From Candidatus Woesearchaeota archaeon (GTDB lineage: Archaea; Nanobdellota; Nanobdellia; Woesearchaeales; GCA-023898365), in NCBI GenBank assembly GCA_023898365.1, contig CP060219.1, forward strand, positions 133,743-197,742: DNA of 64,000 bases, written 5' to 3'. The translations under genes were made by a program, and so were the position numbers. The notes under the pieces are model-generated. The model worked only from the letters and a program-made list of their open reading frames with translations, was not told the DNA's origin and did no database searches. How positions within the stretch are numbered: position 1 is the stretch's first letter; the number at the start of each line of letters is the position of its first letter. Below, one piece after another: positions 20,268 to 64,000 of the stretch.

Positions 20268-20284
20268 GGTTGATTGTAAGCAGA

Positions 20285-32214: not shown

Positions 32215-32266
32215 AAGAAAAAGAGAAAGCACAAGTTATTTTTTAAAATGATGGTTTATTGAAGAT

Positions 32267-35155: not shown

Positions 35156-35169
35156 AGTAGTAGTTACGT

Positions 35170-37032
35170 TTATTGCTTTTTAACCTTCTGTTTTAACCGA
35201 GCAATCATGTCTTCGCTTTGTTTAATCCGCTCATAGCGCTGTTGACGAAGAGCATCTTCCTGAGAAGCAAAAGTGGCCTGCGCTGCAACCACCTCTTTTT
35301 TTGCAAGGTCATCAATAGGAGGGGCAGCACCACCACCCGATCTCGAAGAAGAAATGTGAGATTTCAACGCCTTCGTTCGTTCATGCATCTGCTTAAGTGA
35401 TCGCACTTGTTTTCGTTTAGAGGAAGAAAAATAATTTGCAGGAAGCAAATAGACAAGGAGAAACAAAATAACTGATGCAAGACCAACCAATTCAAACCAA
35501 TGAATGGCAAGTAGGGCGATGCGAGACTCGATGATATTTACTAACAAAATTGTGGAACGCACAGAAGACATAGGAACTCCAAAAACACTCGGCAACGTAT
35601 TTAACACATCTTCAGAATCAGTAACATAAGAAGTGATCCACGATTCACCCTGATCGATACGATCAACCACCCAAACACCCTTCTTGGTGAACGGTTGAGA
35701 AATCTCTCTAAATTCAGCAGACTCCGGAATCAACTCTTTAACAACAAGATCTTCCAACGGACTTTCTCCCAAATTCAACAAATTAAGTGTGACGCGAATC
35801 TCATCTTGCGTAATGTACGCGACACTCTTTTGCACGAAGAGTTTTTTCTCAGGAATATATTGGCGAATGAACGGCAATGACGAGCTATACACCCTGTTTT
35901 TCCCATAAACAAATTCTCCAGCAGGGAAAAAATCAACACCTAACGAATCTTCATCAACATATTTGATCGCGTATTCGACCCGTTTTGACTTTCGAGGATT
36001 TAACGACATATCCCACGTAAGTGTTGAACCATCAGCATTCTTTGTTCCTTCGCCCGTATCAATAATTTCAAAACCCGAAGGAATCTCATCAGTGAGTTTT
36101 CCTGAAACAAGAAGCGGATCAAAATTATTCAAAATAAGTTTGACGTCAATAACGTCTCCTGGTAAGACTTGTGTTGAAGAAACAGTTTTTCTTAAAAACA
36201 CATTATTCAAAAGGAAGCTATTAAAGAACACATCTCGTCCAGTCCCATTTACTGAGGCATTCAAACTGTAATTAATCAAATCATCTTCAGTAAAGAGAGA
36301 AATATTGTTTGTTCTATTATACACGAACTGAGAGGCATCAAGAAACACGTCCGCTTGAAGCCAATAAATCTCCCCTTCGACCACTTCTTCATCGAAAAAA
36401 TCCTTCGCGTAAAATTCGCCAGGGCCAATTTGAGTAACCTCTCCTGTAAAATCCCACGATTCGAGTTCACGCGTAATATCCAAATCAGATGTTTTCGTCA
36501 CTTTAAATAAATCAAGTGTTAAATTAAAACTTGTTGGATTCTCAAAATGAACACTGATTAATCTTCTATCACGGCCAGTGATTGCTTCAACTTCTGGTTC
36601 GTTTTTGAGAAGTTGACCGAACACATCAGTGTAGACTTCGGGTTCTTCTTGGAAGATGCCACCTGCAAGAATAGGTTCCCCATCAACAATAGGATTAATC
36701 GACGTAATACCCAAAATATTGTAACTGAGTGAAATTGAGCTTTGCGGTTCAATACTAAAAATTATCAATCCTTGCGACGTCATCAATTGACCTGAAGAAG
36801 TTGCATTAGAGCGAAGTTCAAGACCAAACAAATTATACGGTATGTTAAGATTGTTAAGCGTGACTTCTTCTTGGTTATATATAGTGATTACTCCATCAAC
36901 ATTGACAACATAAAAATCATCGTAGAAACTTGTAATCTTGCCCGATTCGACAATATCAAAGACTATAGTACCTGCCGTTGCAAAAGGAAGGAGAAAAATG
37001 GCAAGAGTGAAAAAAAGAACAAACCATTTCAT
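35170..37032 (-). CDS. Type I membrane surface protein with two DUF11/CARDB-like modules and a cytoplasmic coiled-coil tail
   Basis: 620 aa. Signal 'FVLFFTLAIFLLPFATA'. Modules 'LPGDVIDVKLILNNFDPLLVSGKLTDEIPSGFEII' and 'IRVTLNLLNLGESPLEDLVVKELIPESAEF'. TM 'VGLASVILFLLVYLL'. Confidence 0.7.
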   Translation of the reverse strand: MKWFVLFFTLAIFLLPFATAGTIVFDIVESGKITSFYDDFYVVNVDGVITIYNQEEVTLNNLNIPYNLFGLELRSNATSSGQLMTSQGLIIFSIEPQSSISLSYNILGITSINPIVDGEPILAGGIFQEEPEVYTDVFGQLLKNEPEVEAITGRDRRLISVHFENPTSFNLTLDLFKVTKTSDLDITRELESWDFTGEVTQIGPGEFYAKDFFDEEVVEGEIYWLQADVFLDASQFVYNRTNNISLFTEDDLINYSLNASVNGTGRDVFFNSFLLNNVFLRKTVSSTQVLPGDVIDVKLILNNFDPLLVSGKLTDEIPSGFEIIDTGEGTKNADGSTLTWDMSLNPRKSKRVEYAIKYVDEDSLGVDFFPAGEFVYGKNRVYSSSLPFIRQYIPEKKLFVQKSVAYITQDEIRVTLNLLNLGESPLEDLVVKELIPESAEFREISQPFTKKGVWVVDRIDQGESWITSYVTDSEDVLNTLPSVFGVPMSSVRSTILLVNIIESRIALLAIHWFELVGLASVILFLLVYLLPANYFSSSKRKQVRSLKQMHERTKALKSHISSSRSGGGAAPPIDDLAKKEVVAAQATFASQEDALRQQRYERIKQSEDMIARLKQKVKKQ

Positions 37033-37739
37033 TCTGCACCCTTCTTTCGAAACGTAAAAACTGTTTTACCTAAGACGAGCACGATAACAATCAACCAAAA
37101 GATGTTTACCGCCCTAATCTTATCGTTTCTAAAGAAGGGAATAATCGAGTATTCAAAACTCAAACGCTCAGTTGGACCCCATTCGAGCAAAGTTGATGAG
37201 CCTTCTGAAGAAACAAGGGCATCAGGGGCGAACGTTACATGATATTTCTTTGGCAAGACAAACGAGGTCGTCTCAACTTTCCGTGGAATGGTAGTGTGCT
37301 CAGCAGGAATATCAATGCCATAGAATAAGATGCCTCGAGGCTTAAAATCTAACCAGTACGTCATAGTCACATCATAATAAAATTGTGGCAAAAGAGGATC
37401 CCAAATGGTAAACACAAGATCGGTAAAATCTGTTCCGGGAACAATCTTAGTATCTAGTCGTTGATCAAATTTGTTTTTTACGACAAATTCTGAGGCGCCA
37501 ATTGATTCTTCACGATCACCACCACTTACTAACTTTGAAAGTTTGAAATGAATCTCACCAGGAATAATAGGATTGTCGCCAACATTCTTGAGGCGAATTT
37601 CTTTTTGTACAAGAATTTTTCCATCTTCTAAAGAGTAAGTGGTTTGATAATTATCAAAAACAACAACTTCAGCAGAAACTTGAGATAGAGTGATAAGTAG
37701 GGAGAATAACAAAACCAGTAACGTAATTGATGTTCTCAC
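37029..37739 (-). CDS. Type I membrane protein, beta-rich ectodomain
   Basis: 236 aa with a GTG start. Signal 'ITLLVLLFSLLITLSQVSA' and C-terminal TM 'IFWLIVIVLVLG'. ATGA overlap with the 620-aa gene. Confidence 0.65.
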   Translation of the reverse strand: MRTSITLLVLLFSLLITLSQVSAEVVVFDNYQTTYSLEDGKILVQKEIRLKNVGDNPIIPGEIHFKLSKLVSGGDREESIGASEFVVKNKFDQRLDTKIVPGTDFTDLVFTIWDPLLPQFYYDVTMTYWLDFKPRGILFYGIDIPAEHTTIPRKVETTSFVLPKKYHVTFAPDALVSSEGSSTLLEWGPTERLSFEYSIIPFFRNDKIRAVNIFWLIVIVLVLGKTVFTFRKKGAE

Positions 37740-37794
37740 GGAACTTTACACCCCCAAAGTTGAAAAAATGAAAATAAAAAAAAATTGGAAGAAC

Positions 37795-39639
37795 CTATTT
37801 GTACTTCCTTAGCTTATGATTGATCTGCCTAGTCATCAACACGTTTGCTACATTGATCGCGATCAAAAACACCACGAGGCCAACATAGAACAATTCTCTT
37901 GTTCGCGTGCCAAGGACCGATCTCATCAAAATAGCTTCCGAACCACCAGCTCCATCAACTTTACGAGGGTCCAATCCTACAATGTAAAGTTCAGACGCAC
38001 GATAGTCACCGGATCCGTTTACCCAGTAACTCACATTCCAAGTCCTGTTATTGTATGACTCACTGATTGGACCAAGAGATGAGTTGTAAGGATTCTTCAA
38101 TGGAATATTCCATTGATGAGTCGTACCGTTAAACTCGGTGTTGGTAACGTTGGCGGACGCGTCTGGCGTTCTACTATACGTATAGTTGAATGGCGTGAAT
38201 TCTGAAGGCACGAAGTCGTAGACCGTGACCACTAAGTGTTGTGGCGTCCAGTCATTTCCAATGTTTTCAACTAAGATGTCAATGCGATATTGATCTTCGT
38301 ATGTTGAAACAACATCCTTATGCACTTCAAGCCAGTAGCCATTTACCACGTAGATGTACTTCATATAATAATCGTTGCCATTTCTCGTATATGTCGAGTT
38401 TAAAATTTGATTATAGGCGTTGATTATGTTGAAGTAAGGCAACATCCACACAACAGGTGGTGGAGAAGTTACCGGATCACTTCCGTCGGTAAAGTTAAAT
38501 TCCCATGCAGTGCTTAAGTAACCTGTTGACAAGTTGATTTCTTGATTTGGATACACCGTTGAGTTGAGTAATCCAAAGTCAGTCGTTCGGTTCGTCATAT
38601 TAAGCGTTGTTGTAACCCACATAGATAATTTTGTCAAGCGGTAAGCAATGTTAATTGGCGTGGTAACATTAGACCGCGCTTCCCACGTCACATTTGTATT
38701 GTTCTCATTATCTGCAGGCTGCACAATTCTTTTTGTTAAGTGATCATGTGCTTGCGCAGAAGCAATAACTGAATCTAAAGAGAGGTTAGATGCTAAATAG
38801 GAAATATTGTATCTAAGCGTCTCAGTGATTGCCTTGTACGTATCTGACGTTGGAACATTGTTTGGCGCAGTCACATTGTACTGAATCCAGACAGTTTCGC
38901 CAGGAACTAAGGTTCCTGCACTCGCTTGCCAATACCAACTCGTGTTACTTGTTCCATTCCCGTGGAGATTAGCAAAATCTCCAAGCTCGTAGAGTTCGTC
39001 AAGAGAGAACAAACTGTTTGTTCCATTCCATAAAATACCATTAACTTGGATAGAAATATTAATATCATTTACATTCTGGCCGACAGCTAAAACGTTGCTT
39101 GCTGATTGATTAACTTGCCAAGTGTGACCAGCAAGAACCTTCCTGTTAAATCCATGTTCGACATTTCCATAAGAAGTGTTAATATCTAATGGTGGTTGAA
39201 CTGAACCACAAGACATATTATAGTTAAACGTTGAAAAATTTCCTGCTCGAAGTTGAGGAATATGAACTTGAAAGACATCTCCTGGAGCAGAACCAAGAGT
39301 TTGCGAACCGTATCTTCCTGCAATGAGTGTGAAATTCGTACTCATTGTGTCCGTGTTCGAGAAGTTAATATAGATATCATCTACCGTGTCCGGACTTGGA
39401 TTAGTCACGTTGAGAATTCCAATGATCTCACATGTTGTCGTTGATTCCGTTAAATAAAAATTTTCTGCGTAGGTAACATTCTGATTGACTGTTTCAACCA
39501 ATGAAATGTTAATCCTTGTCGGAAGCGCTGAAGCCACCGACATAAATAGCAATCCTAACACTAAGAGAAAAATAGCTCGTCTCACCTTGGTCACCTTTGT
39601 ATATCTTTGAAAACGAATAGTTTCATGCGAGCAACACAC
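37795..39639 (-). CDS. Heavily sequon-decorated type I membrane surface protein
   Basis: 614 aa with about 30 N-x-S/T sequons counted by eye. Signal 'AIFLLVLGLLFMSVASA' and C-terminal TM 'LFYVGLVVFLIAINVANVLM'. An alternative GTG start at 39585 has GGTGA upstream. Confidence 0.7.
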   Translation of the reverse strand: MCCSHETIRFQRYTKVTKVRRAIFLLVLGLLFMSVASALPTRINISLVETVNQNVTYAENFYLTESTTTCEIIGILNVTNPSPDTVDDIYINFSNTDTMSTNFTLIAGRYGSQTLGSAPGDVFQVHIPQLRAGNFSTFNYNMSCGSVQPPLDINTSYGNVEHGFNRKVLAGHTWQVNQSASNVLAVGQNVNDINISIQVNGILWNGTNSLFSLDELYELGDFANLHGNGTSNTSWYWQASAGTLVPGETVWIQYNVTAPNNVPTSDTYKAITETLRYNISYLASNLSLDSVIASAQAHDHLTKRIVQPADNENNTNVTWEARSNVTTPINIAYRLTKLSMWVTTTLNMTNRTTDFGLLNSTVYPNQEINLSTGYLSTAWEFNFTDGSDPVTSPPPVVWMLPYFNIINAYNQILNSTYTRNGNDYYMKYIYVVNGYWLEVHKDVVSTYEDQYRIDILVENIGNDWTPQHLVVTVYDFVPSEFTPFNYTYSRTPDASANVTNTEFNGTTHQWNIPLKNPYNSSLGPISESYNNRTWNVSYWVNGSGDYRASELYIVGLDPRKVDGAGGSEAILMRSVLGTRTRELFYVGLVVFLIAINVANVLMTRQINHKLRKYK

Positions 39640-39870: not shown

Positions 39871-40800
39871 ATGGTTCATAGGAAACCAGCTGGTCCAAAA
39901 GGACTTGGGCTAGTTGTTATACTTTTCACGCTCTTCTTCTTAGTGGCAGTAATCCCTTTCACAACAAGCATTAGCGTTAATCCACAAGAAACAATAATTG
40001 AGCGGATTGACCAAGAAAATATCATTCGCATCAGCATCATCAATAATGATGTTGAAGTCCAAAACATTCAACTGCAAACGAGTCAAGAATCAAAGTATCT
40101 TGACAGACATTTTTCTATCAACCCAACATTATTCGGTCTTTCACCTGGCGAAACAAAAGTTATTGAAGTGCAACCAACAGACTTACTTTCTGTAACACCC
40201 GAAAAACATCATTTTTCCTTATTAGTAATCAGTGTTGACGAAGAAAATCAAGAGCAAACAATTAGTGGCGCAATCACCATTTATTTTACCAAAGAAGGAG
40301 ATCAACAACCTTCTCTTCATTTTGACAAACTTACCGTGGTGAGTTCTTCACCAGAAGAAATTGTTTACAGTGTAGATCTTCTTAACAATGGCAACATAAA
40401 TGATTGGATTAAGCCACGCGTTTCTTTATTTGACGAATCAAGAAATGAGGTGTTCTCTACAACGTATAAAAAACCATTTCTTCTTGAACCAAGCCAATCA
40501 ACGACTTTGACTCTCCCTCAGCAATTTAGTAGATTAGAAAGAGGAACCTATACACTTCGTGTTCAGATGATTTACAACGAAAATCTCTCCTCGCCGCTTC
40601 GAGAAGCGCAAATTACTATTAACCAAGAACGTGCAAGGACAACAGAAGGAAACGATTACTCAATCCCTCTGGTCATCTCTCTAGGTGTGCTCGGACTCTT
40701 AGGATTCATCTTGTATCGATACCGAGAATACATAAAAATCAAAGAAGAGCTTGAAAAAAAGCACAGCAACAAAGAAGGAACAAACACGAAGAAAAAATGA
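39871..40800 (+). CDS. Membrane-anchored protein with two Ig-like-looking beta modules; possible class III-like N-terminus
   Basis: 309 aa. N-terminus 'MVHRKPAGPKGLGLVVILFTLFFLVAVIPF'. C-terminal TM 'IPLVISLGVLGLLGFILY' with a Lys-rich tail. Confidence 0.65.
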   Translation: MVHRKPAGPKGLGLVVILFTLFFLVAVIPFTTSISVNPQETIIERIDQENIIRISIINNDVEVQNIQLQTSQESKYLDRHFSINPTLFGLSPGETKVIEVQPTDLLSVTPEKHHFSLLVISVDEENQEQTISGAITIYFTKEGDQQPSLHFDKLTVVSSSPEEIVYSVDLLNNGNINDWIKPRVSLFDESRNEVFSTTYKKPFLLEPSQSTTLTLPQQFSRLERGTYTLRVQMIYNENLSSPLREAQITINQERARTTEGNDYSIPLVISLGVLGLLGFILYRYREYIKIKEELEKKHSNKEGTNTKKK

Positions 40801-42188
40801 AACGCGTAATTATTTTCATTTCTGTTGCGATAGTGATTTCGCTTATCTTCCTCTTTCCAAAACAAAGTGATGGATGCGATTGCGCAGGATCATTACTCTC
40901 AAAAGAAACCTTATGTCTTGGCATTCCTCTTTGTCAGGAAACGATTGTGGCGGCTCCAGAAAAAGAACCAACAGCTATTGATCAAACAACCAGTATTCCA
41001 AACAGTAGCAATACGACTTCCGTACTGCAGAACTCCACTATCAGTAATACCACAAATCAAAATCAGTCGCAAGCTGTTGAGCTAGTCACTGAGAACCCTG
41101 TTTCCACTTCATCCAACACAAGTTCAAATGAATCACTGGTGTGTTCCGCTGATTGCGCAACAATTCGTGAACTGCTCAAAGCAACAGAGCTTGGCACGTA
41201 CGAACAATTTTCAAATTACACGTATAGTAACAATGAGCGAGAAGCAATTGTGCTTGCCATCGACACGTCTGAAAGCATGCAGCGTAGAATCGGACATGCA
41301 AAAGAAGCAGCAAAACAACTTATCGATCTCATCGGCTATGAAGATAGCGTTCTCATTCTCTCATTTGATCAAGAAACAAAAATTTCGTATGGGTTTACGA
41401 ACGACAAAACAGTGCTCAAGAGCCAAATCGATGCATTGACGGTAGGTCTTGGCACTGACGGGTATGAGTTATTTAGAAAAACAAATCTTGTCTTAAACAC
41501 ATTTGACGCGCCAGTAAAAAAACTCATCGTTATTACTGATGGTATTTTTTGGGATGATGGCACAAACCAAACTGCAATTGAAGCTGCACAAGCCACGTAC
41601 TGCATAAATATTATTACTCAAGGTGTTGATATCCTCAAGGATAAAAACAAAGAAAAGCGGATCAAGAATCTAGTAAATGCATGTGGCAGTTATTATTACA
41701 GCCCAGAAACCCCTGAAGAATTGTTTACTCTTATGAATTTGATTTATCACGAAATTGAAGAAGGGTCAAACGAGTTATCCCTTCGCATCAAACTATCACA
41801 TGACCTGGTTGCAAAAAATGAAAATGTAACCATTTCTAGTCTTGCATTCTCCTCATACACAGGCATGGTCTTGCCGTTTTCAAACGACGCATACTGTATT
41901 GAAGCGCCCATTATTACTCTAAATACAAAGGAGTTGTCGACGAAAGGGAGCTGGCAAGAACTATCAACCAACGATCTTATTCCAGGAGAAAACATTCTTG
42001 TTTTACATGCCAAGATCCCCGGATGCAATATTGTAGGTTCAAAAGAATTTGAAGTTATCGTACAGCGAAACAAAGATTATGATTTCCTCACCGTTCTATT
42101 CATTCTCCTTCTGGTTGGGAGCAGCAGTTATTTCTTTATCAAACCAAAACATGTTCGCGCAGTTAAGTTGTTCTTCGGGTTTAAATAA
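40797..42188 (+). CDS. von Willebrand factor A domain membrane protein
   Basis: 463 aa. MIDAS 'AIDTSESM', '...GLGTDG...' and 'IVITDG'. TM helices at both the N- and C-terminus. 4-nt overlap with the upstream gene. Confidence 0.8.
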   Translation: MKRVIIFISVAIVISLIFLFPKQSDGCDCAGSLLSKETLCLGIPLCQETIVAAPEKEPTAIDQTTSIPNSSNTTSVLQNSTISNTTNQNQSQAVELVTENPVSTSSNTSSNESLVCSADCATIRELLKATELGTYEQFSNYTYSNNEREAIVLAIDTSESMQRRIGHAKEAAKQLIDLIGYEDSVLILSFDQETKISYGFTNDKTVLKSQIDALTVGLGTDGYELFRKTNLVLNTFDAPVKKLIVITDGIFWDDGTNQTAIEAAQATYCINIITQGVDILKDKNKEKRIKNLVNACGSYYYSPETPEELFTLMNLIYHEIEEGSNELSLRIKLSHDLVAKNENVTISSLAFSSYTGMVLPFSNDAYCIEAPIITLNTKELSTKGSWQELSTNDLIPGENILVLHAKIPGCNIVGSKEFEVIVQRNKDYDFLTVLFILLLVGSSSYFFIKPKHVRAVKLFFGFK

Positions 42189-42379
42189 AAGCAATAAACA
42201 GTCTTTCATAAGAGGAAGCGAACTCTCGCAGTGCTCGTTTTTTCACAAAGAATCATTCTCTTACCAAACAAAAAGCTAATTGCGCAAAAGATAGGAAAAT
42301 CATCAAAAGAAAAACACATGAAGAGATAAACACGTGAAGAACTTAAAAAAAACACTATTAAAAAAATATACGATCGCTC

Positions 42380-43690
42380 TTAACTCATTTTTACTGGCCA
42401 GACATACTCCAATTCCTGATTGATCGCTTCAGGAGCAGTAACAACCACTTCTTCAGTTGTGCCTGTTCTTGGAATAAGTCGAATATCAAATGATTCGCCG
42501 CCTTCAATCGAAGAAGGTAAACGGAAATGTATTTTGATGACGTCATCTTCATGAACTGAACCAAGTGAATAATCAGGTCCACGTTTTGCATAGGTTACTG
42601 CGAACGTTCCTTGACCCACAGAAGGAGGTGAAACTGTAAACGTGTCGCCCGCATCAATAGTACGCTTAGCAGTCGTCAGACCATACGTTTCTAAATAACC
42701 TGCAGGATCACCAGCAAGCGTAGTAAAAGACGTCCTTGACTTGTCAAAGGTTGCACCAATCGAAGAAATATCTCCTCCTAAAGGAACGGCGACACCTTCT
42801 GTTGAGTTATATTGCACAGAAACATTTCCATCCGATGAGAAGAAAAAGATAGCGTGCGACTCATTCAAACCCATCCACTCATACTCTTGATCGTTATCAT
42901 GATCATTAGCTAAATAGTAAGGATTCCTAAATAGATGCACTTGATTTGCGTTAATGCCGTTCGAGTTGTTGTTTTTTCCAAAAATAGAAATTAGCCCATA
43001 TCCGGATATGTTTGTTAAAAAGTTTCCAAACTGACCCCCGCCAGAACCGATAAGTCGAACGCCACCAGATGCATTAACAGGCCTCACGTACTGAATTCCT
43101 GCACTGGAGACATTGATCATGAGCCATCTTGTTCTCGAAGCTTGACCAAAGCAAGGATTCGTGGCAAGATTTCCAACATCACTTCGACAAGATCTCGCAG
43201 TTTCATTGATGCCATCGCCGTCAATATCCACATTCAGATTGACAAAGGCAAAAAATCCAATTTGCACTTTATTTGTCCCATAAAAAGGAGCATGAAGTTC
43301 ATCAAATTCTTGATCAGAATAAATAGTATACCCCGTAAATGAGTACGCAGCCTCAGCATCAACACCAGCATATTGATAGGAAGATGACGCATCGCTTGCA
43401 CCCGCCAGAATAGTGAGTTGACTTAGTGACATAATATCAGAACCAGGAGTTAAGTGAGCTACAACTTGGACATCTTCCAAATAACTGTCCGTACCATCAG
43501 TAGCAGTAATTTCGGTAACCAGTAAGTGCGAAGCAACATTTGAGTTCACAGAATTTCCCGCTTGGATGGTAGTTTCTTGAAACGACCCACTCGTTCGAAT
43601 TATAACTAATGAAACAAATCCAGCAATAATTATCATAGACAAGACGACAAGCACTAATCCGAGACCAGCAACAGCTCGCTTTCCAACCAT
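42380..43690 (-). CDS. Archaellin-domain (class III signal) protein, about twice normal archaellin length
   Basis: 'MVGKRAVAGLGLVLVVLSMIIIAGFVSLVIIRTSGSFQETTIQAGNSVNSNVASHLLV' aligns by eye to the archaellin N-terminus (..[45 protein letters not shown]). The maximal ORF starts at 43753. The ATG at 43690 is preferred: it gives a short basic pre-sequence and has GGGGTG 8-10 nt upstream. Confidence 0.75.
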   Translation of the reverse strand: MVGKRAVAGLGLVLVVLSMIIIAGFVSLVIIRTSGSFQETTIQAGNSVNSNVASHLLVTEITATDGTDSYLEDVQVVAHLTPGSDIMSLSQLTILAGASDASSSYQYAGVDAEAAYSFTGYTIYSDQEFDELHAPFYGTNKVQIGFFAFVNLNVDIDGDGINETARSCRSDVGNLATNPCFGQASRTRWLMINVSSAGIQYVRPVNASGGVRLIGSGGGQFGNFLTNISGYGLISIFGKNNNSNGINANQVHLFRNPYYLANDHDNDQEYEWMGLNESHAIFFFSSDGNVSVQYNSTEGVAVPLGGDISSIGATFDKSRTSFTTLAGDPAGYLETYGLTTAKRTIDAGDTFTVSPPSVGQGTFAVTYAKRGPDYSLGSVHEDDVIKIHFRLPSSIEGGESFDIRLIPRTGTTEEVVVTAPEAINQELEYVWPVKMS

Positions 43691-43818
43691 TGGACTACAC
43701 CCCACGATAATTCGTAAGTTGCACAATTTATAAAACTTCTCATTTAAGGACATGCTGGCAAGTTGAAGAAATAGTAAAAAACAAAACTATATAAAACAAA
43801 GTTTTTGTGCTTTAACCA

Positions 43819-53960: not shown

Positions 53961-55214
53961 CTATGGCCAGACGAAAACATCTCCGTTTTCAAGAATGCGT
54001 GCTTGTGCACCGTGTTGTTCTGCAAGGAGTTTCACGGAATTGTTTAATTCTGGCGTGCCATGTGTTGGCAGGACCAATTTTGGCTGTGCAAGCGTAAGAA
54101 GTTTCTCCCTATCAGGCCTTGTTGCGTGTCCCGAGGTGTGAATTTCTTTTGTGACGTTCGTGTTCCGTTCTTCAAGGAGAGCTTCAAGTGCTCGGCGATT
54201 CTCTTCATTTTCTGGTGTTGGTATGACTCTGCAACTAAAGATGACTTCGTCACCTTTCTTAAAGTTGTAAAGGCCCTTTCTGACCATACGCGAAAGAACT
54301 GCTGAAGGCTCAGCTTGATGGCCAGTGACAAGAAGGACGTGCTGCGAGGGATCAACAAGTGATGCAAGAAAATTTTCGATCTTCTTTGGACGTTTAAGCA
54401 CCCGAACGTCTTCAAAATCAATACCTATCTCTTCGGCTGCTTTCACATACTTGTGCAAAGAATTGCCAAGGAGGGTGATTGTTCGACCAGAACGCTTTGC
54501 GCAATCTATAATGGTCTTGATTCGGGAAATATGTGATGCGAAAGTCGTAACGACAACCAAACCTTTTTGTTTGGTAATTTTTCGAAGCAAAGAACACATA
54601 TCCCGCGCAACCGACTGTTCTGTAGGATTCGTTGTCATCACTTCATTATTCAAACTGTTCAAAATAAGAATATCTGGCTTTGCAGCGACAATCCCTTCAT
54701 AATCAGGAGGTTCGCCAAGTGTTGGGGCATCATCTAAACGAAAATCATTCGCGTAAAGAATTCTTGCTGTTTTGGTTTTGACAAGAATAAGTGCGCTTTG
54801 GATCGTAGAATGTGTCACATGAATAAATTTTACTTGAATATTCCCGACCTTGATGTTGCGCTCGAAAGACACAGGTTTAAGATTGAGCTTCTTATTATAC
54901 TGTCGGATAACTGCCAAAGAAAAAGGCGTACCATACACGGGAAAAGGAAGGTGTTTGTAAAATTGCAACGCGCCCAAATGATCAAGATGCGCGTGAGAGA
55001 TAAACAAGGCCTTAACCTTTTTTTTCACATCCGTAATATTAGGGATTGCTCCAATACTGCGCAACGCCTTCAAACTCATTTCGGGAAGCGCATTCTTGCT
55101 GAAACGATCGACATGAAGACCAAGATCGAGTAAGAGACCATCACTTCCTTCTTCAATGTACGTGCAATTCCTACCTATCTCGCCATAACCACCCAAAGGA
55201 ATAATTTTTACCAT
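53961..55214 (-). CDS. rnj: Archaeal RNase J-like metallo-beta-lactamase/beta-CASP ribonuclease
   Basis: 417 aa. 'KIIPLGGYGEIGRNCTYIE', 'FISHAHLDHLGA', C-terminal 'HTSGHA'. Confidence 0.8.
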   Translation of the reverse strand: MVKIIPLGGYGEIGRNCTYIEEGSDGLLLDLGLHVDRFSKNALPEMSLKALRSIGAIPNITDVKKKVKALFISHAHLDHLGALQFYKHLPFPVYGTPFSLAVIRQYNKKLNLKPVSFERNIKVGNIQVKFIHVTHSTIQSALILVKTKTARILYANDFRLDDAPTLGEPPDYEGIVAAKPDILILNSLNNEVMTTNPTEQSVARDMCSLLRKITKQKGLVVVTTFASHISRIKTIIDCAKRSGRTITLLGNSLHKYVKAAEEIGIDFEDVRVLKRPKKIENFLASLVDPSQHVLLVTGHQAEPSAVLSRMVRKGLYNFKKGDEVIFSCRVIPTPENEENRRALEALLEERNTNVTKEIHTSGHATRPDREKLLTLAQPKLVLPTHGTPELNNSVKLLAEQHGAQARILENGDVFVWP

Positions 55215-56175: not shown

Positions 56176-56312
56176 TGCGGGGGAAGGGATTCGAACCCTC
56201 GAACCTACTTAAGGACTAGATTCCTCAAAGGCGCAAACGATCCAAATGATAGTTTGCCTGCGTAAGCAGTTTCTTGAGTCTAGCGCATTTGACCAGACTT
56301 TGCTACCCCCGC
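56176..56312 (-). tRNA. tRNA-Leu (anticodon CAA), class II, with a 51-nt canonical intron; no encoded CCA
   Basis: I folded it by hand. Acceptor GCGGGGG/CCCCCGC. D-arm TAGCAAAGTCTGGTCAAATGC is archaeal Leu-like. Anticodon stem CTAGA/TCTAG with loop CTCAAG|A. It has a long variable arm and T-arm GAGGG-TTCGAAT-CCCTT. Confidence 0.9.
56222..56272 (-). other. tRNA-Leu intron at canonical 37/38
   Basis: The 51 nt lie between CTCAAG and ATCTAG. The intron 3' segment TTTGAG pairs with anticodon-loop CTCAAG, leaving a GA|A bulge as expected for a bulge-helix-bulge motif. Confidence 0.8.
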
Positions 56313-56954: not shown

Positions 56955-58043
56955 TTAACCTCGTTCAAACAAGCGGCTATCAATTGCAAGAAGTTTTTCT
57001 TGCACCTCGTTCATTTTGTCATACCAAGATTGCATTGCGTTATTGAGTTTGCTATACTTCAAAATATACCCGTCTATGCGTCGAAACTGCTTGGAAACGT
57101 GTTGTTTGACATTGTCCACATCATGAAGAAAGTCGTGGTATTCCCATTTTTCTACAAACACGCCTTCGTCGTCTTGCACCAAGGATTGTTCTGCGATTGG
57201 AAGATCATTTTTTGCAATAAGCGTTGGGGGAACAAATGCTGGCAGTTCTTCTGATGGCGCAACATCTTGTCCGAAGTCAGGAAGCACAGAAAGATCATCT
57301 GCTTCTTTCACCGGTTCAGGTTTCACCTCATCTTCAGGTCGGACTTGAATAGGTAAATCAATTCCTTCATCAAGATTAAGATCTGCAATGTCTTTTGTTA
57401 AATCATCATCAAACTCAGGCATTTCTTCAGATTCTTTTTCAGGAACCACTTCTTTTTTGGGAAGTGATGGGCTTACCAAGGAAACATCATCAGATTCCGG
57501 AGTAGTATCCGTACTGCGTCTTCCAAACATTGAAGGTTCGTCAGTAGCATCTTGCAGTACAAAATCTTTTTCTGCATCTTGCATGGCCGTGTCAGGAAGC
57601 ACTTCTTGGCCAATAATGCTCTCTTCATCAGATGATCCTTTCGCTCCGACAACGGTTGGCGTCATAAGTTCTCCTTCTTCATCTTGCAGTTGTCCAAAAT
57701 TTCTTGAAGGAGGAGGAGCTTGCAAAGTAGATTTCTTTTCTGTTGCTCCAGGCAAAAGGTCTGAATGATCATGTGAAGGGGCATCTGAAAAGAATGAATC
57801 TTCTGAAGAAGCATCAGATTGTTCTTCACCATCAACCTCTTGTTTTGTTGCTAGAGAGGAAACGGGAGATGGCTTCGCACTCGCAGCTGAAAACGCTGAA
57901 GGAATTTCTTGCAAAGGAGGCTCTTGAGAAGGAGCGGGCACACTCTTCATCGTAGGTGGTGGCGGAACAGCCAAATCACCAGAACTTGTTTCAAGCAGAG
58001 GGTTAACGTCCTCTGGCTTTTTCTTTCTACTAAATAATCCCAA
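56955..58043 (-). CDS. Protein with basic amphipathic N-terminus, about 270-aa acidic/Pro-rich disordered region and C-terminal coiled-coil domain (first gene)
   Basis: The maximal ORF reaches the ATG at 58193 but would overlap aCPSF2 by 70 nt. A TTG at 58043 follows GAGGTG (58052-57) and TATA-like TATATAAATA (58081-90), giving (M)GLFSRKKKPEDVNPLL... The C-terminus is 'VFVEKWEYHDFLHDVDNVKQH...'. Confidence 0.55.
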   Translation of the reverse strand: MGLFSRKKKPEDVNPLLETSSGDLAVPPPPTMKSVPAPSQEPPLQEIPSAFSAASAKPSPVSSLATKQEVDGEEQSDASSEDSFFSDAPSHDHSDLLPGATEKKSTLQAPPPSRNFGQLQDEEGELMTPTVVGAKGSSDEESIIGQEVLPDTAMQDAEKDFVLQDATDEPSMFGRRSTDTTPESDDVSLVSPSLPKKEVVPEKESEEMPEFDDDLTKDIADLNLDEGIDLPIQVRPEDEVKPEPVKEADDLSVLPDFGQDVAPSEELPAFVPPTLIAKNDLPIAEQSLVQDDEGVFVEKWEYHDFLHDVDNVKQHVSKQFRRIDGYILKYSKLNNAMQSWYDKMNEVQEKLLAIDSRLFERG

Positions 58044-58123
58044 AAATCCTACACCTCTAATCTTTGTTTTATCTAAACAGTATTTATATACTTTTCTGTT
58101 TAGAAAAAAATATTTTTTGTCAT

Positions 58124-59413
58124 TCAAAACGTAATGGTTTCCCCAATTGAAGGGCCCATTACCGTTGTTTGTGGCAACGCTTTCTTTCCCCATGCAAGCA
58201 TGGCTTCAATTGCTTCAGGATCTCCATGCTGCACAATAAGCTTTTTTGGATTGATGCTTTCAATAAATGCATGTAAATGATTTTGATCTGCATGACCTGA
58301 AAACATGAATTGTTTCACATCACAGTCAACTTGGGTTTTCCAACCTTTTAGGTAAATTGCACGTTCTTCGAGAAGCATTCTTCCTTGGCATCGATGGCAT
58401 TGATAGCCTGTTAAGAAGATTGCTGATTTCGGATCATGCCAAATATGTTTTATGTAATGAATAACCGGGCCTCCTTGCACCATACCTGATGTCGAGACAA
58501 AAATTCCTGGTCTTGTTGCAGCATAATTTCTTCGTTTTTCACTTGAAACAAAACGCACCTTTGAAAACATTTCTTTTAATGCAGGCCTTCCTTGGAGATG
58601 CCGTTCAGAATTTCTTAGAACTGTTTTGGTTATTTTAGTGGCCATTCCATCAAAATACACAGGAACATCCCATTTTGCGCGAGAGAGAATTATGAGAATG
58701 TCTTGCGCTCGTCCAACGGCAAAAACAGGAATAACGACGCGCCCACCATTTTTTACAACACGTTCAACTTCGCTCAAAAACTCTTCAGCAAGTTGGGCCT
58801 TCTCTGGTAGAGGCCTGTTTCCATAGGTTGATTCAGTTATCATAATATCAATTGGTGGAAGATGCGCATCAGCAGGCGCCATGAGAAGTTGTTTTCCAGG
58901 ATTAAAATCACCCGTGTAGAGAATATTCTTCCCTTCGGTTTGAAGCAAGAGCATGCCAGCACCAGGTATGTGTCCTGCGTTATAAAAACTGAATGCATCT
59001 CCTCGATGTTCGTATTGCGTGCCAAGACGTACAGGTTTAACATATAAGGAGATTTTTCGCAGATCTAAACTATCATATGCTGGATGCAAATGTTTGATGC
59101 GAGCTATCTTGTAAGAATCTTTGAGAAGAATTTTTATCAAACCCCACGTTTGTGGCGTCATGTAGAAAGGAAATTTTACTTTTTTTGCAGAAAGTTCATG
59201 CACAAGAAGTGGAAGTCCTCCTGAATGATCAAGATGAGCGTGGCTCAAAAACAACGCACTTACTTGTTCAGGATCTTTGAGTCCTTCAGGATAATCATAC
59301 CCTGACGAACTGAATTTGATTCCGTAATCGAACAAATATCTATTCTTTGATCGTAACTCAATACAACTACGGCCTACTTCATTAGCTGCGCCATGAAAAA
59401 CCAACTCACCCAT
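58124..59413 (-). CDS. beta-CASP metallo-beta-lactamase ribonuclease, aCPSF2-like (no KH domains)
   Basis: 429 aa. 'FLSHAHLDHSGGLP', 'NAGHIPGA', C-terminal 'FSGHAD'. TATA-like ACATATAAAT (59435-59444) is centred about 27 nt upstream of the ATG. Confidence 0.85.
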   Translation of the reverse strand: MGELVFHGAANEVGRSCIELRSKNRYLFDYGIKFSSSGYDYPEGLKDPEQVSALFLSHAHLDHSGGLPLLVHELSAKKVKFPFYMTPQTWGLIKILLKDSYKIARIKHLHPAYDSLDLRKISLYVKPVRLGTQYEHRGDAFSFYNAGHIPGAGMLLLQTEGKNILYTGDFNPGKQLLMAPADAHLPPIDIMITESTYGNRPLPEKAQLAEEFLSEVERVVKNGGRVVIPVFAVGRAQDILIILSRAKWDVPVYFDGMATKITKTVLRNSERHLQGRPALKEMFSKVRFVSSEKRRNYAATRPGIFVSTSGMVQGGPVIHYIKHIWHDPKSAIFLTGYQCHRCQGRMLLEERAIYLKGWKTQVDCDVKQFMFSGHADQNHLHAFIESINPKKLIVQHGDPEAIEAMLAWGKKALPQTTVMGPSIGETITF

Positions 59414-59567
59414 ACCTTCACTTATCGCGCAGCAATTTATATGTGTTGCGATTATGAAAAAAAGATAGTAAGTGATTCCGAAAACTTAGTTCATTTCGGA
59501 TACGTCAAGAAATATTTCAGAGTTCTTACAAGAAAATTATCAAAGAATGGTTGCGCCAAGAGAGACT

Positions 59568-61253
59568 ATGAAAAAAACCCAGATAGTGTTCATTATCATC
59601 CTCGGGTGCTGTATGATAAGTTCCTTCGCCAGTTCTTGCAATGAAAACATGACAGGATGTTTTGACGTAGAACTAACACTCCACCAAACAGAACCAGTAC
59701 TTAACACAACATACACGAATTTATTTCGATTGGAAAATTTAGATCATGAACAAGGAGTGGAAGAACAACTACGCATTTTTGTAACCTATAATGTATCATG
59801 GCATAACGAAACGTACAATAATTCATTTCTCAAGACAATCAACTCCTATTCAACGACCGGAACAGGAACGTTTACGTTTTCTGCAAACACAAGCCATCTT
59901 CTCTGCGGCGAAATCAGAAACATTTCACAAAACGGAGAGCAGATTAGTGATCCCCACCCGGAAAATAATGTTCTTTGCACCGCAATTGTTTTCGATAACA
60001 CCAGTAATGCAACGGTCAACGAAACAGGTAACGCAACAAACGAGTCTGAAGAAGGAGTTTGCAATCAATCAGTACGTTTCCTCGTTTTGCAGGCGCTAAG
60101 CAATCACAGTTTTCAATTTAAACCAATAATTTCTGCAGAACAACATTGGACGCTCACCTATTGGATAGAAGATCTTGATGGTGTCATATTCAAACAACCT
60201 ATGAACACAACAAACACGAACTGGAAATCATTTACTCCCAGCTCAAGTGTTACGGGAGAAAAAATATTCAGGCTTTACGGACGTCTCAACACAACGTGTG
60301 CACAAACAGAAAACTCAACGTTTCTTTTGCTCAAAAGAGCGCAAGAAGAAAATGAAGAATCATCAGAAAGTGAATGCGTAGAAGATGAAGAAGAACAACA
60401 AGAATCAGCATTGTCATTTACCGCATTACCTGAGGAAATAATTGCAGGATCGACAATTTCGATAAAAGTCAAGGCATACCGAGGAAATACGCTCAAAAGG
60501 AAAGTGACGTTGAGAGGTCCTGGCAATCAAATGAGTTTTTTGATTAACGACAAATATGCTGAAACAGAAGTGACCATTCCCTTCACTATTGAGAAGAGTT
60601 GTTCACTCGAAGAAGGACCAGTTGATTTTATCCTTTCAGGTCTTGACGAAGAAAAAATTATTACCGCGCAGCTTTTCAGACCAACTCAAGATGAGTGCCA
60701 ACCAGCAGAAACGAATGCGACTACCAGCTCACCAAGTCAAAATAGCATTGCAAGTTTTTATACGCGAAAGAAAAAATATGCGCCGCACATAAATTTTTCC
60801 TATCGTCTTGAGCAAGAGTCAAACGACAGCTCAATACTACTTATCATTCCACATCTCCTTCTCAATACAACGACAAATGTGCCTGCTAAGCCAGGCAACA
60901 ACACCGTTTTTTTTCTGCTTAAAGAAGGAGAAGACATAATTGATTTTTTTGAATATCAGTATTTTCTTGAAGATGATTCGCTTAGTCTTGGCGAAAGTGA
61001 AGATCAAAAAGAATCCGAATCCGACTCGTCGAACAACACTCAACGTGAAGACAGTGATCGTTCTCCGCTTACTGGTTTAACCATTTCAGTTCCAAAGAAT
61101 GAGGGGAAGAAAGTAATCGCAATTAGTGTTTTAATCATGCTCGGCATAGCAACATTCGCTGTTGCGCTCATCAAACGAAAGAACATTATTTACGCGGTAC
61201 AACATAGTAGCTTTTATCTTCATAAGAAGAATTCAAAGGATGGAAAGGGTTGA
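59568..61253 (+). CDS. Sequon-rich type I membrane surface protein
   Basis: The ATG at 59568 gives 'MKKTQIVFIIILGCCMISSFASS' (maximal ORF starts at 59547). It has many N-x-S/T sequons and a C-terminal TM 'VIAISVLIMLGIATFAVALI'. Confidence 0.65.
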   Translation: MKKTQIVFIIILGCCMISSFASSCNENMTGCFDVELTLHQTEPVLNTTYTNLFRLENLDHEQGVEEQLRIFVTYNVSWHNETYNNSFLKTINSYSTTGTGTFTFSANTSHLLCGEIRNISQNGEQISDPHPENNVLCTAIVFDNTSNATVNETGNATNESEEGVCNQSVRFLVLQALSNHSFQFKPIISAEQHWTLTYWIEDLDGVIFKQPMNTTNTNWKSFTPSSSVTGEKIFRLYGRLNTTCAQTENSTFLLLKRAQEENEESSESECVEDEEEQQESALSFTALPEEIIAGSTISIKVKAYRGNTLKRKVTLRGPGNQMSFLINDKYAETEVTIPFTIEKSCSLEEGPVDFILSGLDEEKIITAQLFRPTQDECQPAETNATTSSPSQNSIASFYTRKKKYAPHINFSYRLEQESNDSSILLIIPHLLLNTTTNVPAKPGNNTVFFLLKEGEDIIDFFEYQYFLEDDSLSLGESEDQKESESDSSNNTQREDSDRSPLTGLTISVPKNEGKKVIAISVLIMLGIATFAVALIKRKNIIYAVQHSSFYLHKKNSKDGKG

Positions 61254-63906
61254 GTTCAAGATGAGTATTTGTTGAAACGTCAATCATTCTTCGCCACACT
61301 TCTTGTGACACGTCAGGAGACATCGGATAGGATTGTTCGAGGAGGCCATGATATGCTTGAGAAGTAAACAGCAATTGCCCCACATTAAATCCTGAAAAAA
61401 CTGCACCTTTTCCTCTACGAGAATATCTGCGTAGATCTGATTGACCTCGTTCACTTGAAACATTTAAGAAACCAATATTCCCTCCAAGTCCAAGAACAAA
61501 ATTTGCTTCTCGCGTATCACCACCAATATCTGCAGTGCCCGATTTCCCCCACAACAATTCTTCCCCTGCTTGATCGGTTAAAAAAACGCCAGTTGGCCAC
61601 GTTCGAAGACGCTGCCTCCACTCAGCTCGGTCTTTCTCAGATGGTGCAATAAGTGAATTTGGAGGCAATCCTTCGTAACCATATGAATAAGGAACAATCC
61701 TCGCATATGCTTGCGTTGCAGAAGCTGCAAAGGGTGAAAGCCCTCCATGAGGACTTATAGCCCGCTCAACAAAGACCGTGTCAGCACTACCGTTTGAAAC
61801 AACAAGTTTCGAAAACCAGCGAAGACCTGGAACTTCAATTGGTGCAGCTCCTTCGAATAGTACTTTGTTTGTTGTCAGCGCACCATGGTTTTGAAACATT
61901 AACAGGTAGGTAAGCGCATCATCAATATGAAGGGGCACTGCGCCAAGAATAGTTGCGTCAATCTTTGGATCTAATTGGTGTGATCGAGAAAATCCGATAC
62001 GCTCATTCCAAAATGAAGCAAGTTCTTCAGTGATAGTTGGCCTGCCTTCTTCTCTTCGTGCATTGTTTCCAATATTAAGAAGATTGACAAAATAGCGGTT
62101 TATTGACTTGCCAAGCGCAAAACTAAAATCGACAAGACCCCAATATTTATTTTTAAAATTTTTTATAGGAGGAGAAAATACGGGTCTTCCTTTCCAGTTA
62201 ATTCGTTTGTAGCGAACAGGATTAACGGGCGTGTCAGAAAAAATTTCTCTATCAAGTCCTTCTTCGATAAAGAAAGGAGCGTAGAGAAGCTTGCAAATAC
62301 TTCCAATTTGCCTTGGTTCATCAAACGAATGACCAGTTGCTTTTCCTCGGGTATTACTAAAAGCGGCAATGACATCGCCTTGTCTGCTTGCAACAATTCC
62401 CGTGAGATTAGGATCATCATCAATCGATAAGAGCGTGTCAAGAGATCCGAAGAGGCGAGGAACAAGCGTCTGTTGTTGATAAGGAAAATTTGTCAACGTC
62501 GTATGCACAGCAAGGTTTCTTGCAAGCAATTCTTCTCCCGTTTGTTTTGAAAGGTAACGCAAAATTTCACTTGCACGAGCATAGAGTGTGTTTTTTAACG
62601 CAATAGCGCCAGCGTTTTCCAAAGGTGCAGGTTTGCGGCCAGCAATTGAACTTGCAAACGAAAGAGATGAAGGAGGAGTAATACCATTTCCTTCAAGCGT
62701 TGGAGCAATTCTATAATGAAAATCATCTTGAAACAATTGTGCGAGAGAATCAACATATGCTTGCTGCGTGTTTGGTTCTCCTAAAAATCCTTCTGAATTA
62801 ATCGAAGGTTTGTTTGTTGAGGTGAGAAGCATCATCATTTCTGTTTCTGAAAGTGGCGAAGTGCGACCAAAATGGTGTAAAGATGCTGCGGCAAGGCCTC
62901 TTGAAAAAACACCTCTGTCAAGGCCAAACGGGATGTTATTAAGCGCGAGTTCGAGTAAGCGATACTTAATTACTTCTCTTACTTGTCTTTCAGGAAGCGT
63001 TGCTGCAAATGTTCGCTCCGCATCAGAAAAGAGGGGTGTTGTGGAAGGGTCAGCTACAAGAACAGAACGCGTAATTTCCTCAAGTTTTCTACCATAATCT
63101 CGTTCAAATTGTTTGTCGTCGCCAAGACGCATGAGTTGTTGCACAATAGTGCTGCTTCCTTTTGGAGATCCTGGTTTACTATCACTTCGCAGACCTCGAA
63201 CTAAGGAAGGCAAATCAATTCCGAAAAGCGAATATCCTTCGACCCCCTCCCAGTAATTCAAGAATTGAAGAACTTCAGAAGGCCTATACGTGGTGGTGTC
63301 TTGATGCCACGCACCTTTTTCAAAAAATTGTGAGTAAAATCCTGGAAGTACCTTCCCCTCTGAATCGCGAAGAACGGTAAGCGAATCTGGCAAGAAAATA
63401 GGAGGAGGAGTTCTATTTCGAAACATTTCTTTGCCTTGCACATCATAGACAATGAATTGTCGATTATGAGCAAATCCTTGCAAAGAAGCGATTTGATCCT
63501 CAAGAGAGTGTTCGTGAAGTTCCCTTTCAATACTCTGCGATAGCGCGTCCCAATCATGACCTTTGCGTTCAAGCACCACATCAATTCCTTTGAAAAGAGC
63601 TTGTTGGGTGAGTCCTAGACCTTCGTTTTTCCCTCCAAACCGCGCCACAAATGCTGCTGCAACGTTATCGTTACCTGATCGAAGGACAGCAGTTCCTACC
63701 TCTTGAACAAGTGACCGATAAGGAACGTGTGCAAGGGAGACGCCTATTGCAGATCCTGCGGCAAGAAGAGAAGCTGTTTTGAGAAGAGAGCGACGTTTTC
63801 GCGGAGCTCGTTCCTTGCTTGGAGAACCTTCTTTATTGAAATCTATCGTATAGAGTGGATCCTTCACAGATCCTTCTAAAGAGGGTTTAGAATCAGGCGC
63901 AACCAT
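61186..63906 (-). CDS. Class A penicillin-binding-protein-like bifunctional protein (GT51 glycosyltransferase + acyl-serine transpeptidase) with a Tat-like signal
   Basis: 906 aa. Tat-like signal 'RKRRSLLKTASLLAAGSAIGVSLA'. GT51 motifs 'EGVEGYSLFGID', 'KGSSTIVQQ', 'RKLEE', 'RLLELALNNIPFG..RGLAAASLHHFG'. Transpeptidase motifs SxxK 'GSICK', SxN 'KSINR', KSG 'GKSGTA'. TATA-like CATATATAAA (63929-63938) is centred about 27 nt upstream of the ATG. Confidence 0.8.
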   Translation of the reverse strand: MVAPDSKPSLEGSVKDPLYTIDFNKEGSPSKERAPRKRRSLLKTASLLAAGSAIGVSLAHVPYRSLVQEVGTAVLRSGNDNVAAAFVARFGGKNEGLGLTQQALFKGIDVVLERKGHDWDALSQSIERELHEHSLEDQIASLQGFAHNRQFIVYDVQGKEMFRNRTPPPIFLPDSLTVLRDSEGKVLPGFYSQFFEKGAWHQDTTTYRPSEVLQFLNYWEGVEGYSLFGIDLPSLVRGLRSDSKPGSPKGSSTIVQQLMRLGDDKQFERDYGRKLEEITRSVLVADPSTTPLFSDAERTFAATLPERQVREVIKYRLLELALNNIPFGLDRGVFSRGLAAASLHHFGRTSPLSETEMMMLLTSTNKPSINSEGFLGEPNTQQAYVDSLAQLFQDDFHYRIAPTLEGNGITPPSSLSFASSIAGRKPAPLENAGAIALKNTLYARASEILRYLSKQTGEELLARNLAVHTTLTNFPYQQQTLVPRLFGSLDTLLSIDDDPNLTGIVASRQGDVIAAFSNTRGKATGHSFDEPRQIGSICKLLYAPFFIEEGLDREIFSDTPVNPVRYKRINWKGRPVFSPPIKNFKNKYWGLVDFSFALGKSINRYFVNLLNIGNNARREEGRPTITEELASFWNERIGFSRSHQLDPKIDATILGAVPLHIDDALTYLLMFQNHGALTTNKVLFEGAAPIEVPGLRWFSKLVVSNGSADTVFVERAISPHGGLSPFAASATQAYARIVPYSYGYEGLPPNSLIAPSEKDRAEWRQRLRTWPTGVFLTDQAGEELLWGKSGTADIGGDTREANFVLGLGGNIGFLNVSSERGQSDLRRYSRRGKGAVFSGFNVGQLLFTSQAYHGLLEQSYPMSPDVSQEVWRRMIDVSTNTHLELNPFHPLNSSYEDKSYYVVPRK

Positions 63907-64000
63907 ACTTAGAGCGAATCAACAACCATTTATATATGTTACTCTTGTGAAGTGATAATTCATCTCTTTTTTGGTGGTTTTCGAGGAGAAACAACCCGTT

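Follow-up and report, generated by a model that had tools for sequence, protein, structure and literature searches.

A predicted class A penicillin-binding protein of extreme divergence encoded in the genome of a Woesearchaeota archaeon

Results and discussion

A PBP-like gene in an archaeal genome

The genome of a Candidatus Woesearchaeota archaeon (assembly GCA_023898365.1) carries, within the 64,000-nucleotide stretch of DNA analysed here (contig CP060219.1, positions 133,743 to 197,742; hereafter the window), a minus-strand gene at 61186–63906 which codes for a predicted divergent class A penicillin-binding protein (PBP). As judged from alignments, the protein has the two-module architecture of class A PBPs, with the residues that would bear the chemistry of both modules conserved, and it lies well outside the sampled radiation of bacterial class A PBPs while keeping the predicted catalytic residues. 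The PBP-like gene is a real, native gene of this small-genome archaeon.

The open reading frame (ORF) exists on the minus strand as first described, with 906 codons that are free of interruptions; its ATG at 63906 is the first start codon after the upstream in-frame stop. The product is deposited on a contig of 1,131,583 bp under the title ‘MAG: transglycosylase domain-containing protein [Candidatus Woesearchaeota archaeon]’. While the transglycosylase-domain annotation is already public, the full bifunctional architecture, the catalytic retention, the extreme divergence and the atypical export-type segment, all predicted from the sequence, are new here. The features of the gene and its product are as follows (pLDDT, predicted local distance difference test score).

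61186..63906, minus strand: PBP-like gene, predicted divergent class A PBP (906 amino acids plus stop; NCBI USN45722.1)
63928..63937, minus strand: TATA-like box ATATATAAAT, centred about 27 nt upstream of the ATG (consensus match only)
63730..63798, minus strand: candidate twin-arginine export signal or weak signal-anchor, residues 37–59 (KRRSLLK-TASLLAAGSAIGVSLA-H, rich in Ala, Gly and Ser)
63397..63729, minus strand: extra region, residues 60–170, mostly helical, with low pLDDT and without family assignment (match to the PBP profile not significant, E 0.11)
62722..63387, minus strand: GT51 peptidoglycan-glycosyltransferase-type domain, residues ~174–395 (Pfam PF00912 and alignments)
62410..62721, minus strand: interdomain linker region, residues ~396–499, collinear with the class A PBP linker (hhalign; partial match to NCBIfam PBP_1a_fam, residues 450–611)
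61357..62409, minus strand: penicillin-binding or DD-transpeptidase-type domain, residues ~500–850 (S536-I-C-K539, S601-I-N603, K788-S-G-T791)
61189..61356, minus strand: C-terminal tail, residues ~851–906, without detectable relatives (pLDDT <50)

The 3' end of the gene (65 coding bases plus the stop codon, 68 bp, 61186–61253) overlaps a convergent ORF at 59547–61253 on the plus strand. The 568-residue product of this ORF, which matched no Pfam family, combines a Sec-type signal and a C-terminal hydrophobic anchor with numerous N-x-S/T sequons and an acidic region rich in Ser and Glu, and probably is a glycosylated surface protein.

Conservation of the two modules

Transgly (PF00912) is the only Pfam family matched by the protein, with 43.1 bits against a gathering threshold of 27 (E 4e-11, residues 215–370). 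The motif strings of the GT51 module are EGVEGYSLFGID (residues 220–231), GSSTIVQQ (250–257), RKLEE (273–277), LLELALNNIPFG (317–328) and AAASLHHFG (339–347). A BLASTP alignment with E. coli PBP1b places E220 on E233, GSSTIVQQ on GASTLTQQ and RK..E277 on RK..E290, and further downstream pairs SIN with SMN and KSGT with KTGT. In the multiple alignments A2, A3 and A4, E220 occupies an invariant column and E277 a near-invariant one; the role of the motif 1 Glu as the catalytic base has been confirmed by reviews (PMC3608906). GT51 motif 2 (GxSTxTQQ) is represented by GSSTIVQQ, and motif 4 (KxxILExYLN) by K314-YRLLELALN323, in which the conserved Tyr is replaced by A321.

Other parts of the module depart from the family. 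Motif 1, for which the consensus is EDxxFxxHxGxD, reads E-G-V-E-G-Y-S-L-F-G-I-D and keeps only the Glu and GxD; the columns which hold D, F/Y and H/N in 43 of 43 full-length references each are occupied by G221, G224 and L227. Motif 5 (RRxxVL) reads QQAYVD, with a deletion relative to the E. coli PBPs, and about 25 residues are inserted behind motif 3. The changes in motif 1, which concern the acceptor site, suggest that the substrate preference of the putative enzyme is changed or relaxed. The initial annotation had taken every hallmark motif to be readable; all the strings it quoted are present and the catalytic residues are kept, but GT51 motifs 1 and 5 are degraded.

In the transpeptidase-type module, SICK is located at residues 536–539, SIN at 601–603 and KSGT at 788–791, the latter being the sole K[ST]G of the protein; a second SIN at residue 368 is irrelevant. 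The comparison was based on 44 diverse bacterial class A PBPs, 43 of them full-length. In alignments with 3, 9 and 32 of such references, E220, G250/S252/T253/Q257, K274, S536/K539 and S601/N603 fall in invariant columns, and in A2 and A4 this also applies to K788/G790/T791. A hidden Markov model (HMM) built from the 44 bacterial proteins alone matched the archaeal protein with 45.5 bits in three collinear pieces, and hhalign against the class A profile yielded a single alignment of residues 150–681 (98.2% probability, E 3.3e-14), which extends from the GT51 module across the linker into the transpeptidase domain, of which it covers two thirds. S536/K539 and S601/N603 lie inside the significant HMM and hhalign alignments. 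Of the 41 near-invariant columns, defined by conservation in 31 or more of 32 references, the protein keeps 31 (76%), as compared to a background identity of 21% and to 91–100% in the references themselves. The ten changed positions include Y→A321, P→L540, Y→A543, W→N802, W→N810 and G→S829; W→N802 and W→N810 affect two conserved Trp residues past the KTG strand.

Taken together, the PF00912 score, the HMM score, the hhalign alignment and the retention of near-invariant columns indicate that the motif matches reflect homology and not chance. The statement that both candidate catalytic Glu residues and the Ser are retained likewise held, since these residues are in register in BLASTP, hhalign and MAFFT alignments, and the proposed class A PBP architecture, with GT51 preceding a penicillin-binding-type acyl-serine transferase in an apparently intact protein, was recovered.

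The assignment of the third transpeptidase motif is less straightforward. K788-S-G-T pairs with KTGT in A2, in A4 and in four of six local MAFFT runs and is misaligned in A3, where the KTG column was placed at L752; this placement was judged a MAFFT artefact. The C-terminal 225 residues alone matched the class A profile with an E of 0.31, at which the KSG register is not significant, and about 100 residues ahead of the KSG strand (685–785) are poorly modelled. K788-S-G was accepted because it is the sole K[ST]G, because three alignments choose K788, and because the downstream strands and helix fit. Of the transpeptidase motifs reported initially, SxxK and SxN are thus in register, but the KSG register is not significant by itself and the Pfam model Transpeptidase (PF00905) did not match the protein at E ≤ 1. 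The protein scored more than ten-fold below the cutoffs of the NCBIfam PBP models (PBP_1a_fam, 35.6 vs 508.75; PBP_1c, 40.5 vs 494.2), and the threshold of PBP_1b was likewise not reached.

Structure prediction from the single sequence with AlphaFold resulted in an unusable model (pLDDT 34). The best structural matches of an alignment-guided model are bacterial class A PBPs, e.g. PBP1b and PBP1a of E. coli, PBP2 of S. aureus and PBP4 of L. monocytogenes, a result that depends on the alignment behind the model and is not independent of it. A search of the PDB with the profile of A4 shows that the reference profile represents class A PBPs and is no evidence about the archaeal protein.

Native status of the gene

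The window encodes PCNA, the exosome subunits Rrp4, Rrp41 and Rrp42, an ATP-dependent DNA ligase, two beta-CASP nucleases, a P-type ATPase, an S-layer-family protein and an archaellin-like protein. A tRNA at 56176–56312 on the minus strand was matched by Rfam with 45.9 bits; since it spans 137 nt as compared to the 71 positions of the model, an intron is probably present. ARAGORN predicted no tRNA in the window, the one at 56176–56312 included. The TATA-like box in front of the PBP-like gene implies a leaderless or near-leaderless transcript, as predicted from its distance to the ATG. TATA-like boxes at 24–30 nt before the start codon were also found for about ten other ORFs of the window, among them those of the DNA ligase, ThiI and the beta-CASP proteins, so that the leaderless archaeal promoter layout appears to be a property of the genome in which the PBP-like gene shares. 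Both the archaeal gene context (PCNA, exosome, ATP-dependent DNA ligase, tRNA with a probable intron, leaderless TATA promoters) and the promoter geometry described in the initial annotation were confirmed.

A bacterial fragment mis-joined or mis-binned to an archaeal contig could in principle mimic such a situation, given that only 94 bp separate the gene from the window end and that its family is otherwise bacterial. However, the NCBI contig of 1.13 Mb continues past the gene, and a separate Logan assembly of SRR12358676 contains the identical gene on a 26-kb contig, with both junctions spanned and the same neighbours. This contig agrees with the window in 7,716 of 7,716 bases, without mismatch, and runs 10 kb beyond the window end, the GC content of the additional DNA being 0.400 as compared to 0.402 for the window. 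The codon usage of the PBP-like gene has the second lowest distance from the rest of the window among 22 ORFs of at least 400 codons, and its GC content (0.432), its GC content at third codon positions (GC3, 0.291) and its tetranucleotide distance (0.222; median 0.200) are within range. The promoter is of archaeal type, and no known bacterial PBP closely resembles the protein. With two concordant assemblies and native codon usage, a bacterial mis-join across the gene, which had been named initially as the finding that would overturn the proposal, is very unlikely.

Divergence and origin

In an exhaustive phmmer search of 1.84e9 representative sequences the protein matched only itself, and a word-index search of 5.8e9 clusters with the full protein likewise returned the self match alone. 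The GT region used as the query of a word-index search gave no match at E ≤ 10, a phmmer search of the PDB with the protein gave none either, and scans of JGI metagenome contigs and of IMG/VR viral sequences with the protein revealed no relatives. A profile-seeded scan of species-representative genomes, with the matches confirmed against the archaeal protein, detected at least ten distant PBPs, all of them bacterial among the matches listed. Their identity to the protein is about 28–33% over about 130–160 residues of the GT domain, and they stem from diverse groups, among them Rhizobiaceae, Anaerolineales, Methylomirabilia and Rokubacteria; neither an archaeal relative nor a donor lineage was among the matches listed. 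Pairwise phmmer comparison with the 44 class A PBPs gave at most 14.3 bits, whereas these PBPs scored 41.9–1480 bits against each other (median, 283). Synteny was of little help: the neighbouring beta-CASP gene (58124–59413) has one metagenome match of 41% identity, on a 2.7-kb contig that is too short to be informative.

Since the family is bacterial, the acquisition from bacteria suggested in the initial annotation is reasonable to infer. No donor lineage stands out, however: the best matches are about 30% identical and come from unrelated phyla. The expectation that homology searches would point to a donor lineage was accordingly disappointed. The native composition of the gene argues against a recent import, and the extreme divergence together with the retained catalytic residues suggests that the transfer is old and that the gene has since evolved fast, under a functional constraint that persisted but probably shifted.

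N-terminus and additional regions

The twin-arginine-like string KRRSLLK noted initially is present at residues 37–43. The pattern RRx##K, here RRSLLK, does not occur in any of the 44 references. The best 19-residue Kyte-Doolittle window at the N-terminus scores 1.52, the lowest value of all as compared to 1.58–2.88 in the 43 full-length references, and the spacer from the N-terminal segment to the catalytic Glu comprises 161 residues, as compared to a median of 58 in the bacterial PBPs. Directly ahead of the GT module, a strong hydrophobic membrane anchor is lacking. We infer that the N-terminus is compatible with export by a twin-arginine-type signal, with possible cleavage after SLA, or with weak anchoring on a long stalk; it would be less suited to the bacterial layout, in which the GT jaw is kept at the membrane by a strong transmembrane helix. 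Within the extra region, residues 83–128 (63523–63660, minus strand; AAAFVARFGGKNEGLGLTQQALFKGI...) resemble the GT51 segment ‘AAxxYFGKxxxxLxLxExAxLAG’, which recurs at 339–365. A weak BLAST piece had raised the possibility that residues 56–172 are a partial duplicate of a GT51 segment; this was rejected, as hhalign gave an E of 0.11 and self-BLAST was not significant.

Relation to known systems

The bacterial class A PBPs mentioned above (E. coli PBP1b and PBP1a, S. aureus PBP2, L. monocytogenes PBP4) show the same order of N-terminal segment, GT51 module, linker and transpeptidase, and share with the archaeal protein GT51 motifs 2, 3 and 4, the motif 1 Glu, SxxK, SxN and, in the register accepted here, probably K(S/T)G. 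Unlike them, the archaeal protein has altered motifs 1 and 5, a weakly hydrophobic N-terminus with an RR pair, extra residues at 60–170 and 851–906, and inserted stretches both downstream of motif 3 and ahead of the KSG strand, besides its pairwise scores of no more than 14.3 bits; the accessory domains of the references (UB2H, OB/ODD, C-terminal domain of PBP1c) are absent. With the monofunctional GT51 enzymes MtgA and SaMGT it shares the motif 1 Glu and the motif 3 Glu, and there is a weak match to the NCBIfam model mono_pep_trsgly, but it differs from them in having a full C-terminal penicillin-binding-type domain and an altered acceptor-site motif. Because of the deviations in the full motif 1, in motif 5, in the transpeptidase and whole-PBP model scores and in the anchor type, the protein is filed as a divergent variant of class A PBPs and not as a full member.

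Murein-directed proteins are not unprecedented in related archaea. According to two reports (PMC8204110, PMC9723730), small-genome Woesearchaeota and Pacearchaeota possess extracellular murein-directed lytic transglycosylases (GH23/SLT), and these organisms have been proposed to be episymbionts or predators of bacteria. The lytic enzymes resemble the protein, as it is tentatively read here, in deriving from small-genome DPANN archaea, in their bacterial origin, in being directed at murein and in their predicted extracellular location, and they give an ecological reason for a protein that targets the wall of a bacterial partner. They are, however, glycan-cleaving proteins of up to 3,000 residues, as opposed to a GT51 synthase-type module fused to a penicillin-binding domain, and Pfam detected no SLT or GH23 domain in the PBP-like protein. 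The murein-directed genes of DPANN archaea described to date are degradative and not of the synthase type (PMC8204110, PMC9723730). A literature search retrieved neither GT51 nor class A PBPs reported for DPANN archaea, nor PF00912 for archaea. The presence of GT51 is taken as an almost perfect indicator of murein. As no GT51 gene was reported among 101 archaeal genomes in a CAZy survey of 2012 (PMC3541169), an intact native GT51-transpeptidase gene that looks expressed, in a chromosome-length archaeal contig, is unusual.

Possible role of the PBP-like protein

The reading which we tentatively prefer, at a probability of about 0.42, is that the protein is an old, ameliorated bacterial import that is exported and acts on the peptidoglycan of a bacterial partner. 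The gene would descend from a bacterial import that has been fully ameliorated and has gained an archaeal leaderless promoter. Its product would be exported through the RRSLLK-type N-terminal signal and then be released, or tethered outside the membrane by a long stalk, where its target would be the peptidoglycan, or the lipid-linked precursors thereof, of bacteria serving as partner or prey, and it would not make murein for the archaeon itself. The transpeptidase module would become acylated on D-Ala-D-Ala stem peptides, the GT51 groove would bind or extend glycan strands, and the protein could work beside the lytic transglycosylases of small-genome Woesearchaeota as part of a toolkit against bacterial walls. 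Archaea are known to produce peptidoglycan hydrolases that kill bacteria (PMC12352652). Besides these hydrolases, the partner-directed role is suggested by the class of organism, the export-type N-terminus, the singleton distribution, and the lack of murein-precursor genes (murA-G, mraY, flippase) in the 74 kb inspected (the 64-kb window plus 10 kb, about 7% of the 1.13-Mb genome). Given the departures in motifs 1 and 5 and the atypical N-terminus, it would be wrong to take the protein for a standard murein synthase.

Several points weigh against this partner-directed role. The lipid II on which a GT51 enzyme acts is normally that of the membrane it is embedded in, and the access of an archaeal surface protein to the lipid II of a bacterium is the main mechanistic weakness of the proposal. 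In E. coli PBP1b, substitution of the motif 1 Asp, Phe and His reportedly led to strongly lowered glycosyltransferase activity (work of Terrak et al. in 2008), and the GT module of the archaeal protein, in which these residues are replaced, may by analogy be weak or inactive. An endogenous precursor pathway may be encoded elsewhere in the genome, as about 7% of it was inspected. The putative export and cleavage of the protein are deduced from the motif and from the hydrophobicity comparison, and the structural similarity to class A PBPs is, as noted, tied to the underlying alignment.

Two other explanations deserve consideration, neither of which is likely. The protein might be a pseudo-enzyme or binding module, which has kept the fold but lost one or both activities and serves as an adhesin, as a receptor for glycans or stem peptides, or in an unrelated structural role. 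Changes affect ten of the 41 near-invariant positions, among them D→G221 and F→G224 beside the catalytic Glu, the Tyr replaced by A321 and the two Trp residues past the KTG strand; motif 5 is degenerate, the Pfam transpeptidase model fails, and extreme divergence is typical of relaxed or shifted constraint. The residues kept are, however, exactly the catalytic ones (both Glu, Ser/Lys, SxN and, in the accepted register, K-S-G), with 76% retention over a background of 21%, and such a selective retention is hard to explain if the chemistry no longer mattered. We therefore consider the loss of activity a rather doubtful explanation, though one to be kept in mind.

A synthase of the archaeon's own envelope, which we rate as unlikely, would be a membrane-held protein that polymerises an endogenous saccharide linked to lipid pyrophosphate, which could resemble a murein precursor or be a GlcNAc disaccharide on dolichol-PP as in N-glycosylation, to a non-canonical wall polymer that might be cross-linked by the transpeptidase module. 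With enzyme and substrate in one membrane, this is mechanistically the simplest setting for a GT51 enzyme; the persistence of both catalytic sets despite strong divergence argues for continuing catalytic use, and the acceptor-site changes in motif 1 could mirror a non-murein substrate. Archaeal MurG-like and MraY-like enzymes have been described to make lipid-linked chitobiose (bioRxiv 10.1101/2021.01.19.427365). On the other hand, none of the genes detected in the 74 kb inspected belongs to a precursor pathway, a gene for a conventional S-layer-type protein is present in the window, and the weakly hydrophobic N-terminus, 161 residues away from the GT site, is a poor fit for a membrane-held jaw. 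The searches also found no archaeal orthologue of the singleton, which is unexpected for a core envelope function, and the survey of 101 archaeal genomes cited above reported no GT51 gene. That a PBP-type synthase acts on an own lipid-linked precursor to form a murein-like or novel glycan or glycan-peptide polymer in the archaeal envelope is, in this specific form, quite improbable; if true, GT51/transpeptidase chemistry would for the first time account for the wall of an archaeon, one independent of pseudomurein.

Whichever explanation applies, the gene provides a clonable handle on how small-genome DPANN archaea physically interact with bacteria, and on the possible use of PBP-type chemistry by an archaeon. 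Having diverged so far while keeping the catalytic residues, it also constitutes a natural experiment on which parts of class A PBPs are indispensable, within the limits of one gene from one genome whose function is deduced.

Other features of the window

The window is, as judged from predicted products, rich in cell-surface proteins. Two runs of large ORFs (18294–26572 and 32267–39639), encoding proteins of 520–1114 residues, have absent or weak domain matches, the weak ones being of adhesin type (Big_9, DUF11, DUF4215, DUF7507 and MG2). Near these runs are genes for VWA-domain and archaellin-like proteins (39871–43753) and for the S-layer-family protein (1368–3563).

The segment 47301–52209, which comprises genes for a Na+/H+ exchanger-TrkA protein, a CBS-domain protein and a P-type cation ATPase, has a GC content of 0.34–0.36, clearly lower than that of the window, and the largest tetranucleotide distances in the window (0.29–0.33, as compared to a median of 0.20); it may have been acquired horizontally or be atypical for another reason.

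The ORF at 31120–32232 (minus strand, 370 residues) matched queuine tRNA-ribosyltransferase (TGT) with 397.7 bits; an alternative ORF at 31080–31598 overlaps it in another frame. Archaeosine TGTs are longer than 370 residues. The size of the predicted protein thus suggests the bacterial queuine type, which would fit the queuosine pathway reported for some DPANN genomes (PMC8204110).

The genes of the two beta-CASP metallo-beta-lactamase nucleases, one RNase J-like and one aCPSF-like, are located within 5 kb of each other on the minus strand (53961–55214 and 58124–59413). The ORF at 56955–58193 (minus strand), which codes for a protein of 412 residues rich in Pro, Ser, Glu and Asp and without family match, shares 70 bp, read in another frame, with the 3' end of the beta-CASP gene upstream of it; the gene called at this position in the Logan assembly is shorter, with 362 residues.

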